From positions 1 to 48,318 of the forward strand of contig NW_021834429.1 in the NCBI RefSeq assembly GCF_006345805.1: DNA of 48,318 nt. The letters run 5' to 3'. This DNA is from Octopus sinensis (Eukaryota). Shown piece after piece: positions 4,055 through 46,520 of this stretch. Under the pieces are notes generated by a model. It saw only the letters and a program-made list of their open reading frames with translations. It searched no databases and had not been told where the DNA came from. The stretch's first letter is position 1. Each line of letters begins with the position of its first letter. The position numbers and the translations under genes are program-made.

Positions 4055-4175
4055 TTTTTTGTCGAAGAGCCTAGGCACAAAACGTCAAAGACCTTTCCAT
4101 TCTCCTCGAGCGTTAATTAAACTAATACACCTACTTGTTGTTCCTTCACCTGTCTTCTTTTGTTTTCTGTAAATC
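4055..4175 (+). mobile_element. PLE-like family P1, decayed copy with minimal hammerhead motif
   Basis: TTGTCGA-A-GAGC-ctag-GCAC-AAAAC-GTC-aaaga, then a tail homologous to 9443-9575 and 46360-46490. Confidence 0.6.
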
Positions 4176-6568: not shown

Positions 6569-6655
6569 GGGTTCTGGGTTCGATTTGTTCGACTAAGGCG
6601 GTGCTCCAGTATGGCCGCAGTCAAATGACTGAAACAAGTAAATGAATAAAAGAAT
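6569..6655 (+). mobile_element. SINE family A, 3' terminal fragment
   Basis: cgactaaggcggtgctccagtatggccgcagtcaaatgactgaaacaagt between TA tracts. Confidence 0.85.
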
Positions 6656-6668
6656 ATATATATATATT

Positions 6669-7060
6669 CGCAGGAGTGGCTGTGTGGTAAGTAGCTTGCT
6701 AACCAACCACATGGTTCCGGGTTCAGTCCCATTGCGTGGCATCTTGGGCAAGTGTCTTCTGCTATAGCTCCGGGCCGACCAATGCCTTGTGAGTGGATTT
6801 GATAGACGGAAACTGAAAGAAGCCTGTCGTATATATGTATATATATATATATATATGTCTATGTGTGTGTGTTTGTCCCCCTAGCATTGCTTGCAAACCG
6901 ATGCTGGTGTGTTTACGTCCCCGTCACTTAGCGGTTCGGCAAAAGAGACTGATAGAATAAGTATTGGGCTTACAAAGAATAAGTCCCGGGGTCGATTTGC
7001 TCGACTAAAGGCGGTGCTCTAACATGGCCGCAGTCAAATGACTGAAACAAGTAAAAGAGT
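6669..7060 (+). mobile_element. SINE family A, full length (tRNA-like head, internal microsatellite)
   Basis: A-box-like tggctgtgtgg and B-box-like ggttcagtccc. About 10 homologous copies in the window. Confidence 0.9.
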
Positions 7061-9442: not shown

Positions 9443-9635
9443 TAAAGGGAAATTTTTACGAAAATAAACAAAAACCGAAGGCAGGTGGAGTACAAACAAA
9501 CAAATGTATTAGTATAGCGCTCAGGAATAGAAAAAATCTTTTACGTTTCGAGCCTACGCTTTTCGACAGAAAGATACACAGAAAAAAACAAGGAGAGAAA
9601 CAAGGAGAGAGAAAAGGGAGAGAAAAAATGGAGAG
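9443..9635 (-). mobile_element. PLE-like family P1 with minimal hammerhead motif (9536-9575)
   Basis: ATCTTT-CTGTCGA-A-aAGC-gtag-GCTc-GAAAC-GTA^AAAGAT. The 3' end abuts (TA)n. Confidence 0.75.
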
Positions 9636-25703: not shown

Positions 25704-26790
25704 TGCACTGTGAGCTGAGAAAGAATGGACCTCGTCTCAACCATTTTCTCTTCATAAATTATTTCAAACTGATCGCAAAAACAGAGCGTGAAATATAGAG
25801 GCTGGTTGAGATTGTGAAAATGTGCAGCAAGGATCTAAAGATGGTATTCGGTATCTCGTAGTGTGCGGCACTTCTGTTAATATATATATTTATATTTAGC
25901 GGTGAATTTTCTGCCGTCCGGCAATTCAGTATTATTTAATTTGCCAAACACGGAGGAATTTAAAGCAAAAATTGCTAAACGCGAAAACTATTCGCGAAAA
26001 TCATTGGACATTACTTAAAACCCACCAAATACCTGATTAAGGAAGCGGGTATTCGAGTCCGGAATAAATAATCCCACATTTAACAAGGCCCCTGACCCTC
26101 TCCGTTAATTAATTGTAATTACCGCCGTTAAACTAATATTTATTATTATTATTTTCGTTGTTACTGGGAAAAATAAAAAAGGCGGAAAAACAAATCGAAA
26201 ATTAAGTGATTATAATCAATAAATTCATTAAAAATCAAACGAAATTATCTCGAGTTTATTGAAAAAATGAGCAATTACCTCTCCTGTCCTGAATAATAAC
26301 CTCCCCTTATATTTTTCTACTCGCTGATTCATTCACAAACTTCCTTCCAAGAACATGGAGTAATATCTTAAGAAGATACAAAATTACAATATTTTCAATG
26401 TCATGATTAGCAAAAGCGAAACCGGTCGACAAACAATACTCTTTCACTTATAAAATATATTTAAGAATATATTAAAACTATGTAAACTGTGTGCATTTAC
26501 CTTCTGTTAAGATATATATATTGCATTACAAATAACAACGCGGGGATAATCGAAATTCTCCATTCCCTTTCCTTATATATATATATATAGAGAGAGAGAA
26601 GAGAGAGAGAGAGGGAGAGAGAGAGAGAGAAAGAAAGAAAGGGAGAGAAAAAATAGTCTTCGTAGTGGCTTCAGGTTCAGAGCCAATTCTTGATGGTTAA
26701 AGCAATTTTATTAGACACCAACAGCGAAACATATTCGTTGGCATCACTAATATTTTTCACTATATATATATAGTATATACGTATGTATAT

Positions 26791-27145
26791 TCTTTTATTC
26801 TTTTACTTCTTTCAGTCATTTGAGTGAGGCCATGCTGGAACACCGCCTTAAAATGTTTTTAGTCGAACAAATCAACCCCGAAACGCTAAGTTACGAGGAC
26901 GTAAGCTCACCAACAACGGTTGCCAGGTGATGGTGGCGGGGGCAAACATACACACATATCCGAAAATATATTCTTATATACATATATACGACAAGCTTCT
27001 TTCAGTTTCCGTCTACCAAATCTACTCGCATGGTTTTGGTCGGACCGAGGCTATAGTAAAAGACACCTGCCCAAGGTGCTACGCAATGGGTCTGAACCTG
27101 GAACCACGTGGTTGGGAAGCAAGCTTCTTAACACTCAGCCATACC
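26791..27145 (-). mobile_element. SINE family A with an internal deletion
   Basis: Reverse complement of the family A consensus. Confidence 0.85.
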
Positions 27146-31178: not shown

Positions 31179-31576
31179 GTGGCACGTAAAAAGCACCATT
31201 CGAGCGTGATCGTTACCAGCGTCGCCTTACTAGCACTTGCGCCGGTGGCACGTGAAAAACATTTGAGCGAGGTCGTTGCCAGTGCCACTGGACTGGCTCC
31301 TGTGCAGGTGGCACGTAAAAAAAACACCAGTTGAGCGTGATCGTTACCAGTACCGCCTGACTGGCTCTCGTGCCGGTGGCACGTAAAAGCACCCACAACT
31401 CTCTCGGAGTGGTTGGCGTTAGGAAGGCATTCCAGCTGTAGAAACTCTGCCAGATCAAGATTGGAGCCTGGTACAGCCATCTGCTTTGCCAGTCCTCAGT
31501 CAAATCGTCCAACCCATGCTAGCATGGAAAGCGGACGTTAAACGATGATGAATATGATGATGATGATGATGATGAT
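31179..31576 (+). mobile_element. 5'-truncated retroposon 3' end with ~65-bp tandem units and (GAT)n tail, RTE-type
   Basis: gtggcacgt(a/g)aaa recurs at 31179, 31245, 31308 and 31376. tggttggcgttaggaagg..ccagctgtagaaac is followed by (GAT)n. Confidence 0.7.
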
Positions 31577-32992: not shown

Positions 32993-33641
32993 ATATACCA
33001 AAACTTAGTTTGACTGAGAATTGAAGTTTCTTAAATTCAAATGGAATACCTGTTGGTAATTTTGGAAATTTTGGAATAGGCACATACACACTCATATACA
33101 AAGTGTATCGTCTTCGTCGTATAAAATGTCCTTTGCTATGTCGTATGTACGAACTCGCAAACACGCACACGCTCACAGACGCATACACACTCATACACAA
33201 AACGCGTCGTCGTCGTAGTGTTATAAAATGTCCTTTACTATCTCGTACGTAAGGAAGGAGCAAACACACACACACACACACAAACACATATACATTCATA
33301 TACAAAATGTGTCGTCTTCGTGGAATAAAATGTCCTTTACTATGTCGTACGTAACGAACGCGCAAACACACACACACACATAATCAGAGGCACATAAACA
33401 AAATATGACGTCATCGTCGTCGCCGTTGACGTAAAAATGTCTTTTACTATAGATGACTATAGAAAGATTATTTTAGATAAAATGTTATGTTGTTTTAATC
33501 CAAATGAAAAAAAATTACATGTTGACACTCTAATACTATTATTTCGTAAAGTTTGATTTGATTTGGTGGAGCTGTTTGAGAATGCATAGGGAACAGACAG
33601 ACAGACAGACAGACAAACAGAATTTTACATATAAATATTGA
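32638..33641 (-). mobile_element. Non-autonomous Helitron-like element, possibly two nested
   Basis: 3' hairpin actcgggcaacgccgggt and CTAA|T at 32638. Candidate A|TC 5' ends at 33453 and 33641, the latter followed by (GTCT)n. Confidence 0.65.
33080..33453. repeat. ~103-bp tandem array, about 4 copies
   Basis: aaaatgtc(c/t)ttt(a/g)ctat at about 33123, 33225, 33327 and 33434. Confidence 0.85.
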
Positions 33642-36914: not shown

Positions 36915-38295
36915 TCGTGTCAGTCTATGACTATATACAAGCTGTGAACCATTTACTGGGATGCTCTGGCGATGTATGCGTAAGATTGAATTCAGTTATG
37001 GATCAAAAGCAACGCTGGTGTTGTAAACATTCCCCGTTTCGATTTAGGGATCTAATGGTGATAATTCACAGAAATGGTAAAATATCGGTGTCCATCACTC
37101 CTGAAATTAATTGGAGGAGCGTTTGTCTGTCCTTGTCTATGACTTTCATGTGTTTTAACACCCAGCATCATGAGGTAGGGTGCCGTCGCCATCGCGCTAT
37201 GCGAATCACCCGGATAGCAAGCAAAATACGTACGTTAAGCATGTGCGGTCGATAAATGTGTGTATGTGTTCGCGCGTGCATGCAAGCAGGGCATAATGTG
37301 CTTGCTTCAAATAAAGACCTGCTCAAATTATTGTTGGTCAAGAACCAATATGGCAATCTTTTCTTCAGCACCATGCTACCTGTGCTCTTTATACTCTAAT
37401 TAACCGTGGTTTACTATGAGTCGGACGAAAAGAGACTGGTTACAATGCATAAAGGCATAGATTCATTTTAGGTATATCTGTGCGGACTGAAACGATGTGA
37501 TTCAAGAATGAAGTGGAGAGTCATGTGATCTTGCAAATACCTATTTCTTTACTGCCCACAAGGGGCTACACACAGAGGGGACAAACAAGGACAAGCAAAC
37601 GGATTAAGTCGATTATAACGACCCCAGTGCGTAACTGGTACTTAATTTTATCGACCCCGAAAGGATGAAAGGCAAAGTCGACATCAGCGGAATTTGAACT
37701 CAGAACGTAGCTGCAGACGAATTACCAATTTCTTTACTACCCACAAGGGGCTAAACACAGAGCGGACAAACAAGGACAGACAAACGGATTAAGTCGATTA
37801 TATCGACCCCAGTGCATAACTGGTACTTAATTTTATCGACCCCGAAAGGATGAAAGGCAACGTCCACCTCGGCGGAATTTGAATTCAGAACGTAACGGCA
37901 GACGAAATACCTATTTCTTTATTACCCACAAGGGGCTAACCACAGAGGGGACAAACAAGGACAGACATAGGTATTAAGTCGATTACATCGACCCCAGTGC
38001 GTAACTGGTACTTAATTTATCGACCGCGAAAGGATGAAAGGCAAAGTCCACCTCGGCGGAATTTGAATTCAGAACGTAGCAGCAGACGAAATACCGTTAA
38101 GCATTTCGCCCGGCGTGCTAACGATTCTGCCAACTCACCGCCTTGCAAATACCGTTGGTATAATTTCTGCAAAGTAAGACACGTTAAAGGGTTCACAGAC
38201 AGGTGAACCCGTACTGCCGTCGAATGGTATCCAAAAGATCGTAATAAGTGCTTTAGAAGACATGAAATAGGATGGGAATCGGACATTGTCAAAGA
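36915..38295 (+). pseudogene. Decayed RTE-clade LINE reverse transcriptase/C-terminal relic
   Basis: DYIQAVNHLL (RT N-part), NLFFSTMLPVL at 37355, LGISVR, EWYPKDR..WESDI at 38222. All resemble RTE ORF motifs in the correct order. Confidence 0.6.
37542..38143 (-). mobile_element. SINE family C with one head and three tandem ~185-bp bodies
   Basis: TSD cttgcaaatacc at 37530-37541 and 38142-38153. Confidence 0.92.
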
Positions 38296-45096: not shown

Positions 45097-45500
45097 GGCG
45101 CAGGAGTGACTGTGTGGTAAAAAGCATGCTTCTCAACCGCATGGTTCCAGGTTCAGTCCCACTACGTAGTACGTGTCTTCTACTATACCCTCGGGCCGAC
45201 CAAAGCCTTGTGAGTGGATTTGGTAGACGGAAACTGAAAGAAACCCGTCGTATTATATATATGTATATATGTATGTATGTATTTGCTATTTTTGTCTTTG
45301 TTTGTCCCCCTACCATCGCTTGACAACTGATGCTGGTGTGTTTGTGTCCCTCGTCACATAGCGGTTCGGCAAAAAGGGACCGTTAGAATAAGTACTAGGA
45401 TAACAAAGAATGATTCCTGGGGTCGATTTGTTCGACTAAAGTTAGTGCTCCAGCATGGCCAGAGTCAAATGACTGAAACAAGTGAAAGAATAAAAGAATA
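45097..45500 (+). mobile_element. SINE family A, full length
   Basis: Matches 41003-41413. Confidence 0.9.
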
Positions 45501-45593
45501 TATATATATCTTTCATTCTCCTGTTCTGGCAATGTTTCTTTTGTATATCGGTGGTGGGGAGATGAATCGCTGCTGTCTCTTGCGATCGAACGT

Positions 45594-45640
45594 TCATCAT
45601 TGACAAGACCAAGGAAGGTCGAAATCACGTGATCTGATGG
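45594..45640 (+). ncRNA. Type I hammerhead ribozyme, U3-A8 core
   Basis: TCATCA-TTGACAA-GACC-aaggaa-GGTC-GAAA-TCA cg TGA-TC^TGATGG. Predicted cleavage after 45634. Confidence 0.8.
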
Positions 45641-45940
45641 TTTCTGTACTGAAGATGGCACGGATTTATCTCCCTGCCAGCGATATAAGTCTATTATGAA
45701 CCACAAGCCAATATAAGAGTTTTTTCTCATAACTACCGCAGTATAGTCTGTTCTAAATGAACATCCACGTTTAAATGGGCATAAATATGACCTTTCGGTA
45801 TTAATATGGCTTCTGTCGCTAATATATATATTTCTAACAGGCTCACTGGTCAATAGCGACACCAGTACCCGTTCTGGCACCGTTTTCCAATATATCACTG
45901 GCGGGGAGATGGATCGGTGCTTCCACTAATGGCCGAGCAT

Positions 45941-45987
45941 CCATCATTGATGAGACCCAGGAAGGTCGAAATCACCTGATCTGATGG
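45941..45987 (+). ncRNA. Type I hammerhead ribozyme, C3U core
   Basis: CCATCA-TTGATGA-GACC-caggaa-GGTC-GAAA-TCA cc TGA-TC^TGATGG. Predicted cleavage after 45981. Stem I is extended by GCCGAG/CTCGGC. Confidence 0.85.
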
Positions 45988-46287
45988 TCTCGGCGCCGGA
46001 AATGGCGGGGATTTATCTCCCCACAAGCGATATAAACAAGAATGCATTATGAAGGAAAAGCTTATGGTATCTACCGTAGTAAAGTTTGTTGTAACAGAAC
46101 ATTCACGTTTAAGTGAGGATAAATGTTATCTTCCGGTATTAATTCTGCTTCTGCCACTTATAAATAAATGTGTGTGTGTGTGTGAATGTACTTGAACTTA
46201 AGTAGGTATATATTCATACACCTCTGTGTGAGAGACAGCATGGGAATATCTGTTTGTCTACACTCATACACACACATACACACGCAA

Positions 46288-46363: not shown

Positions 46364-46520
46364 GGAAAGTTTACGAAAATAAACAAAAGACGAAGACAGG
46401 TGTGTACAAAATAAACAGATGTATTAGTATAACGCTCAGGAATAGAAAAGTATTTTACATTTCGAGCCTACGCTCTTCTACAGAAAGGTATACAGAAAAA
46501 CAAGGAGAGAAAAAAAAGGA
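46360..46520 (-). mobile_element. PLE-like family P1 with minimal hammerhead motif (46451-46489)
   Basis: CTTT-CTGTAGA-A-GAGC-gtag-GCTC-GAAAT-GTA-AAA. The 3' end abuts a long (TA)n. Confidence 0.75.

Follow-up and report, generated by a model that had tools for sequence, protein, structure and literature searches.

Two Diverged Hammerhead Ribozymes in Tandem Units of a Large Octopus Repeat Family: Probable Remains of an Old Non-LTR Retrozyme

A non-coding insertion of 650 bp in the genome of Octopus sinensis carries two hammerhead ribozyme motifs in head-to-tail units, and we consider it probable that it represents one old insertion of a non-LTR retrozyme, in which a circular RNA of ~350 nt was copied 1.87 times and which has likely been decaying since. 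Such a hammerhead repeat is apparently undescribed so far for this host group. The window referred to below is the whole stretch of DNA that was analysed (48,318 nt).

Results

Two hammerheads in tandem units

The features of the locus are as follows.
45097..45496, + strand: SINE copy outside the element, ending ~24 nt upstream of it in a TA run; T5 at 45289
45520..46169, + strand: whole insertion, 650 bp, 1.87 head-to-tail units, non-coding, period 347-348 bp
45520..45831, + strand: unit 1, with the 36-nt linker missing at its 5' end, a 6-nt gap relative to unit 2 and a TA run at its end
45544..45687, + strand: rod 1, which extends helix I; outer arms 45544-45568/45663-45687, 24/25 paired (3 G-U)
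45594..45640, + strand: hammerhead 1, canonical type I, core 45600-45606 with U3 and A8, predicted cut after 45634; loop 2 AAGGAA, palindromic loop III ACGU
45635..45981, + strand: predicted monomer (prediction only), 347 nt between the cut sites, with a T6 run at 45720
45832..45867, + strand: linker of 36 nt, occurring once, between the units; family sequence rather than host DNA
45868..46169, + strand: unit 2, with a 15-nt gap relative to unit 1 and to the family, ending before a GT microsatellite
45891..46034, + strand: rod 2; outer arms 45891-45915/46010-46034, 22/25 paired (2 G-U), inner part largely broken
45941..45987, + strand: hammerhead 2, core 45947-45953 with U3 and G8 (wobble), predicted cut after 45981; private changes in loop 2 (45958) and loop III (45976)

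A descriptor scan of both strands found exactly two type I hammerheads in the window, with the cores TTGACAA (unit 1) and TTGATGA (unit 2). Under the strict criteria matches occurred in 0 of 200 composition-matched random windows, and under the loose criteria the mean was 0.01 per window. Each unit has the canonical type I geometry, with six pairs in helix I, four in helix II and three in helix III (A15.1-U16.1 counted), no extra base between positions 9 and 10.1, and an AUC triplet whose C17 lies at 45634 or 45981, 347 nt apart. An earlier sequence-only reading of this DNA had reported two hammerheads with all three stems and an AUC triplet, U3 in both copies and A8 in copy 1, and a 25-nt arm pair around each motif; the scan places both motifs where that reading did, the core letters are correct, and the arm pairings were reproduced together with their G-U counts. 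The observation of two hammerheads in tandem units is confirmed as real and well above chance.

No Rfam family matches the window at its gathering score. The unit 2 motif aligns over the whole Hammerhead_HH9 model (RF02275; 34.9 bits, E 1.2e-6, below the gathering score of 52), including its bulged helix I extension and six-base loop 2, where loop 1 to loop 2 tertiary contacts may form, and the unit 1 motif is absent among the 24 Rfam matches at E up to 10. Both motifs, being under the gathering score, are missed by routine annotation. HH9 itself belongs to amniotes, where it occurs singly in introns.

BLAST of the dimer against the window matched 45520-45831 to 45868-46169 and returned no third unit, and the dimer is absent among the 113 Tandem Repeats Finder rows for the window. 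The GC content of the units is 0.41 and 0.44. The Pfam scan covered the 131 open frames of at least 70 aa in the window, including those over the element and leaving out low-complexity frames; at the Pfam cut-off it gave no RT or GIY-YIG domain, and no host exon, promoter or PLE frame was found in the window. No target-site duplication was found around the insertion: the flank search gave TA-run matches only, among them an 11-nt TA match at 45497 and 45821.

Divergence of the units and the core letters

The two units, described earlier as clearly diverged, differ at 71 of 296 aligned sites (24%), 41 of these differences being transitions. The Jukes-Cantor distance is 0.289, or 0.145 for each unit; on the scale given for Octopus, where 0.09 corresponds to 25 and 0.2 to 56 million years (PMC13282606), the units would be about 40 million years old if they began identical. 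Divergence is uneven along the unit. The hammerhead block has 5 differences in 47 sites against 66 in 249 elsewhere (Fisher p 0.024; p 0.058 against the tail alone), and the inner rods are only 56-59% alike between units. A better-kept block is not what neutral decay alone, starting from identical units, would predict, though intact motifs were the reason for choosing this locus. At two inner-rod pairs, 45590-45642 and 45585-45647, unit 1 has A-U and unit 2 has G-C, and these swaps may record change under selection before insertion.

The consensus core C3 U4 G5 A6 N7 G8 A9 is departed from by U3 in both copies and by A8 in copy 1, and U3-G8, the combination in unit 2, slows cleavage. Positions 7-8 read CA in unit 1 and TG in unit 2: a CG ancestor would imply one transition in each unit, and a CA ancestor (with U3-A8) would imply two changes as well. 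As for the suggestion that A8 arose by CpG decay, CpG is hardly depleted here (observed/expected 0.91), which makes such decay a weaker account of A8 than it would be in vertebrates. U3, being shared by the units and no CpG product, predates their split. Core positions 3 and 8 do not figure among the best 40 of 180 rows of differences from the family majority, and the hints at the core letters of relatives point both ways, as the clip points at 45595 and 45598 and one contig (X23 record 26) hint at U3 and another (X23 record 28, starting at 45948 with two letters unaligned) hints at a core letter other than U3. A U3-A8 core is a natural active covariation (PMC3088659; PMC4209133), and a natural U3 core with G8 is named in PMC7151607. 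The non-consensus core lowers the claim that this is an active copy; the assignment to the retrozyme class rests on the class of the motif.

Rods, folding and the predicted double hammerhead

Both 144-nt rods fold more stably than any of 200 dinucleotide shuffles each (z = -8.4 for rod 1 and -4.2 for rod 2), and the tails between the rods show nothing of this kind (z = -0.2 for both). Read by hand, the inner rods have several broken pairs in each unit. The outer arms of rods 1 and 2 also pair crosswise, at 23/25 and 24/25 positions, and 9 of 10 pairs are possible between the helix III strands of the two units. For the predicted 347-nt circle we calculated -95.3 kcal/mol (z = -3.9).

At 37 C the ensemble of the double hammerhead was predicted at -213.9 kcal/mol against -210.4 for two single hammerheads, that is, 3.5 kcal/mol better. 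In this model, which leaves out tertiary contacts, the unconstrained fold lies 5.4 kcal/mol below the double hammerhead, and the single hammerheads lie 3.7-7.9 kcal/mol above the predicted ensemble. Far better cleavage as dimers is described for axolotl retrozymes with a weak helix III (PMC7229834).

The A at 45637/45984 gives UGAU twice in a row (45596-45599 with 45630-45638). The 5' side of helix I can thereby shift its pairing to the helix III strand, which hides the cleavage triplet; this shift is seen in the predicted fold of rod 1. The linker together with the 5' end of the unit (45832-45890) holds small hairpins, with arms near 45844-45850/45860-45866 and 45866-45870/45877-45881, which are apparently kept in relatives and are possible signals for the copying enzyme.

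A large repeat family

Of the 24 public sequencing runs listed, eight, which carry four organism labels between them, contain at least half of the sampled words. Contigs of four runs were aligned at 80% likeness; three of these runs are presumed to be DNA (X1, X13 and X14) and one is only guessed to be RNA (X23). The insertion matched 1299 contigs in X1, 2177 in X13 and 3495 in X14, of which 1222, 1989 and 3032, respectively, are less than 95% alike to it. The summed family depth over the first core is 21,000-45,000, which is not a copy number, against 10-40 for single contigs. Because of these contig numbers, mostly from diverged copies, and of this excess of depth, the insertion is assigned to a large dispersed repeat family.

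One contig (X1 record 3) is identical to the locus over 45607-46155, so the dimer is no assembly error. Another (X13 record 12) runs over the junction without a gap (45759-46037), has 20 differences in 279 sites and is likely the orthologous site in organism E. The depth over the left flank, 45500-45525, is about single copy in X13 and X14; on the right, reads break off at 46156-46260. From such comparisons the site is likely common to organisms A, E and F. In all four runs the family has loose ends at 46048, within unit 2.

X23 contributed 54 contigs of relatives, none of them 99% alike to the locus, which has no bearing on its transcription; among the 24 listed runs none on record as RNA holds the locus. 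Pattern scans of viral contigs and of GTDB contigs gave 0 and 0 matches. In metagenomes, the 28-letter pattern gave 0 matches and the 19-letter pattern gave six, none extending past 27 nt. Three metagenome contigs (L001 at 700-745, L002 at 1490-1535, and L004) have a hammerhead-like motif in which helix II and loop 2 are as in unit 1, with an extra A after position 9 and the similarity stopping at 27 nt; the frames of L002 are repeat-like only, and the motif is likely an unrelated animal repeat.

One insertion or two

The same arrangement might have arisen from two separate insertions of one hammerhead repeat, as monomers or solo pLTRs, or from two different source RNAs joined through template switching, with the 347-nt spacing incidental. 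The sequence-only reading had raised two pLTR insertions as an alternative because of a TA run in unit 1 near 45821. That run exists (45821-45831) and, with its 11-nt match at 45497, is readable as a target duplication around unit 1; the match at 45497 is, however, the SINE's own flank, 12 nt from the end of the element. Most of the family depth, 85-95%, ends at 45813-45834 (from 5686 to 829 in X1 and from 17373 to 912 in X14), so that monomers that stop at the TA run may make up most of the family; the same drop could come from alignments that break at the run. The 24% difference between the units, the better-kept hammerhead block and the two A-U/G-C swaps are further points in favour of separate insertions.

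Against these stand the relatives that cross the TA run into the linker and pass from the linker into the next rod. The linker has a depth of 365-829 in X1 compared with ~40 for the single contig of the locus, and differences from the family majority are listed within it at 45834, 45840, 45851 and 45855. At 45834-45840 the depth is 766-829 in X1, 1095-1476 in X13 and 865-912 in X14, and at 45851 it is 365, 509 and 268, two to three times lower, so contigs cross the TA run from the left. One contig (X1 record 4) spans 45830-45948 with 23 differences and thereby connects the linker with the rod that follows it, 45833 is joined to 45977 in one X13 contig, and 48 X14 contigs clipped at 45544 run on into sequence that resembles the 5' part of unit 2. 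Because relatives both cross the run and link the linker to the rod, the family sequence closes on itself, as is expected of tandem or circular templates. Copies of the family are not always solitary, given that relatives' contigs run across the junction from unit 1 to unit 2.

The distribution of private changes bears on the same question. Among the best 40 of 180 rows of differences from the family majority, 36 fall on sites that are aligned between the units; for 30 of these 36 the family letter stands in the opposite unit, 15 changes being private to each unit, three show the same non-majority letter in both units and three are third states. The units are therefore equally far from the majority over the listed rows, and they share U3 and a non-majority letter in helix I, the A at 45637/45984, where relatives have G in 57-92% of the depth in the three DNA runs. 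Such a pattern fits best two equally old copies from one subfamily. With 71 of 296 sites differing and private changes balanced at 15 and 15 among the listed rows, the locus is likely an old, decaying dimer. We regard separate insertions as unlikely; the proposal made earlier is weakened by the crossing relatives, though the TA run on which it drew is there.

The neighbouring SINE and transcription

The sequence-only reading had also supposed that an intact SINE just upstream on the same strand could supply read-through into the units. The SINE, which we take to be an octopus repeat, is one of 11 BLAST matches in the window. It is full-length but, although that reading called it intact, not pristine, having a 9-bp gap relative to the other four aligned copies, a distance of 13-16% from the three closest of them, and a T5 run that is missing from these three. 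On the + strand there are T runs at 45289 (T5, in the SINE), 45539 (T4), 45720 (T6, in the 347-nt unit) and 45883 (T4). Such runs end RNA polymerase III transcription. Lying as they do between the SINE promoter and the cut site at 45981, they would halt polymerase III before the unit is made, and read-through from the SINE is unlikely. A composite SINE-retrozyme family was rejected on the single-copy depth at 45500-45525. The SINE looks younger than the dimer, with which it has in common only the TA-rich landing site. Should the units be transcribed at all, a polymerase II transcript running through them would be required; none through the locus was found.

Other repeats in the window

Microsatellites are frequent in the window, and one SINE occurs in it many times. 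A second, unrelated repeat is present in three copies (46364-46515 and 9444-9603 on the - strand, 4056-4165 on the + strand), the first of which begins 195 nt downstream of the dimer, on the opposite strand. It has a minimal hammerhead-like motif, in which a core-like CUGU-N-GA is followed by an additional A, by a helix II of 4 bp closed by a GUAG loop, and then by GAAA; position 6 is U rather than A, and a palindromic ACGU is found in two copies. It resembles a Penelope pLTR fragment. Three 185-bp tandem units with 91% matches occupy 37535-38095, where the descriptor scans found no hammerhead, and about three tandem units each, with periods of 102 and 68 bp, occur at 33081-33422 and 31179-31388. 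At 6574-7058 and 26788-27141, SINE copies adjoin further SINE 3' ends, which suggests nested or tandem insertion at TA runs.

Discussion

The canonical hammerheads, the head-to-tail layout, the large family and the relatives that cross the junction uphold the original description of the locus as a retrozyme-like tandem unit. In animals, tandem retrozyme transcripts self-cleave and the monomers are circularised, most likely by tRNA ligase, and a PLE or LINE enzyme would then make cDNA of more than unit length from the circles (PMC7229834). By analogy, a polymerase II or other host transcript running through an array of the octopus family would be cut after each AUC, the monomer would be ligated into a circle of ~350 nt (by RtcB in published work), and the circle would serve as template for more-than-unit cDNA made by a borrowed reverse transcriptase, probably of the Penelope type. 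Such copying would be expected to leave 1.87 units, of which the 5' one is cut short, with a 3' end that is fixed and AT-rich.

With a helix III this short, cleavage may proceed mostly through a double hammerhead, in which each long arm would pair with an arm of the neighbouring unit and the helix III strands would join into one duplex of 10 bp, with 9 of its 10 pairs possible today. Cleavage at 45981 would then fall to unit 1, with its U3-A8 core, and cleavage at 45634 to unit 2, whose U3-G8 core is the weaker. The earlier prediction that a transcript of the locus would release a 347-nt RNA in vitro is doubtful today because of the unrepaired breaks in the rods, the U3-G8 wobble in unit 2 and the precedent that one of nine Xenopus genomic dimers was cleaved (10.64898/2026.07.22.740005). 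That this particular locus makes circles in vivo is very unlikely. The locus is most likely a fossil.

The definition of retrozymes covers repeats of 150-450 bp with less than 50% GC, and those of Mytilus galloprovincialis measure 350-390 bp (PMC7229834); the octopus dimer falls within this range, with a period of 347-348 bp, two complete motifs, a GC content of 41-44% and no coding frame. It shares with the metazoan non-LTR retrozymes of Mytilus, Acropora millepora and axolotl (Rtz331/353; PMC7229834) a canonical type I hammerhead in each unit, head-to-tail units of ~350 bp with less than 45% GC and no ORF, many genomic relatives, a self-paired predicted circle and a short helix III that suits dimeric cleavage. 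Unlike them, it has U3 instead of C3 in both cores, its 1.87 units are 24% apart, its cleavage, expression and circles are putative, and arrays of more than two units were not seen. The plant LTR retrozyme, with a type III hammerhead and a 4-bp target duplication, is not matched, as the hammerheads here are type I and the duplication is missing.

Tandem units with one hammerhead each, capable of single or double folding as here, are also found in newt satellite 2, Schistosoma Sm-alpha and Dolichopoda pDo500. Newt satellite 2 and Sm-alpha form long, fairly homogeneous arrays. In pDo500 the hammerhead is better conserved than the rest of the unit, as in the octopus dimer; its arrays are long and fairly homogeneous as well, and the octopus locus is an isolated, diverged dimer of a dispersed family.

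A closer relation to PLEs has to be weighed, namely that the units are the pseudo-LTR ends of an autonomous PLE, forming a short partial tandem that has no ORF and produces no free circle; the hammerhead would then have processed the RNA of that element. Hammerheads of PLE pLTRs are type I, with a palindromic helix III, partial tandems and TA runs nearby, as at our locus, and the Cercyon PLE of Schistosoma has a natural U3-A8 core like that of unit 1 (PMC4209133). Partial tandems, TA-microsatellite targets and a one-sided extension of 30-40 bp are PLE traits (PMC8557442), and the 36-nt linker fits such an extension. Of 57 retrozyme families in Xenopus, 24 match known TEs, 22 in number, of which 21 are PLEs, matched at the pLTR ends; the same preprint derives non-LTR retrozymes from pLTRs and reports monomers and short arrays as common, with no mollusc in the sampling it describes (10.64898/2026.07.22.740005). 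On the other hand, the hammerheads of metazoan pLTRs flank an RT/endonuclease ORF and are of a minimal form, with an extra base after position 9, a larger helix II and a shorter helix I, whereas the canonical metazoan hammerhead has a helix I of 6 bp, a helix II of 4 bp, a short helix III and a palindromic loop (PMC4209133). The octopus motifs are of the canonical kind, both the extra base after A9 and the enlarged helix II being missing, no ORF remnant was found among the 131 frames, and the best-supported loose ends of the family lead into unit sequence and not into coding sequence. We therefore hold pLTR ends of an autonomous element to be quite unlikely.

Retention by the host is an extremely unlikely reading, in which both ribozymes would be under selection because a host transcript yields the 347-nt RNA, linear or circular. 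In its favour, both motifs have all three helices although each unit has diverged by ~14%, the block of the hammerhead has changed less than its surroundings (p 0.024), and the site is apparently common to organisms A, E and F. Against it, the contrast is inflated by the choice of a locus with intact motifs, among many copies some are intact by chance, the inner rods are broken, unit 2 has U3-G8 and lacks the loop III palindrome, the likely orthologue differs at 20 of 279 sites, and no promoter or host exon was found.

For the giant squid, the genome paper gives no more than a count of 235 matches to hammerhead 1 (PMC6962438). In its accessible text the O. vulgaris repeat paper leaves ribozymes unmentioned, and octopus or cephalopods have 0 mentions in the main text of PMC7229834 as accessible, the supplement of which may list one; no published description of an octopus hammerhead, retrozyme or Penelope-ribozyme family was found.

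Returning to the reading that we prefer, an old non-LTR retrozyme insertion, a wider picture can be drawn from it, which we put forward as fairly unlikely in its entirety: a cephalopod family, abundant in several species and with the non-consensus U3, in which a rod of ~50 bp would tie cleavage to the dimer and keep it off in the monomer circle, and of which younger copies would make circles of ~350 nt. If U3 proves to be the state of the family, thousands of natural copies would test how variable the 3-8 core pair may be. With this finding the animal non-LTR retrozymes, and the making of circular RNA by way of ribozymes, would reach into a large repeat family of the octopus.
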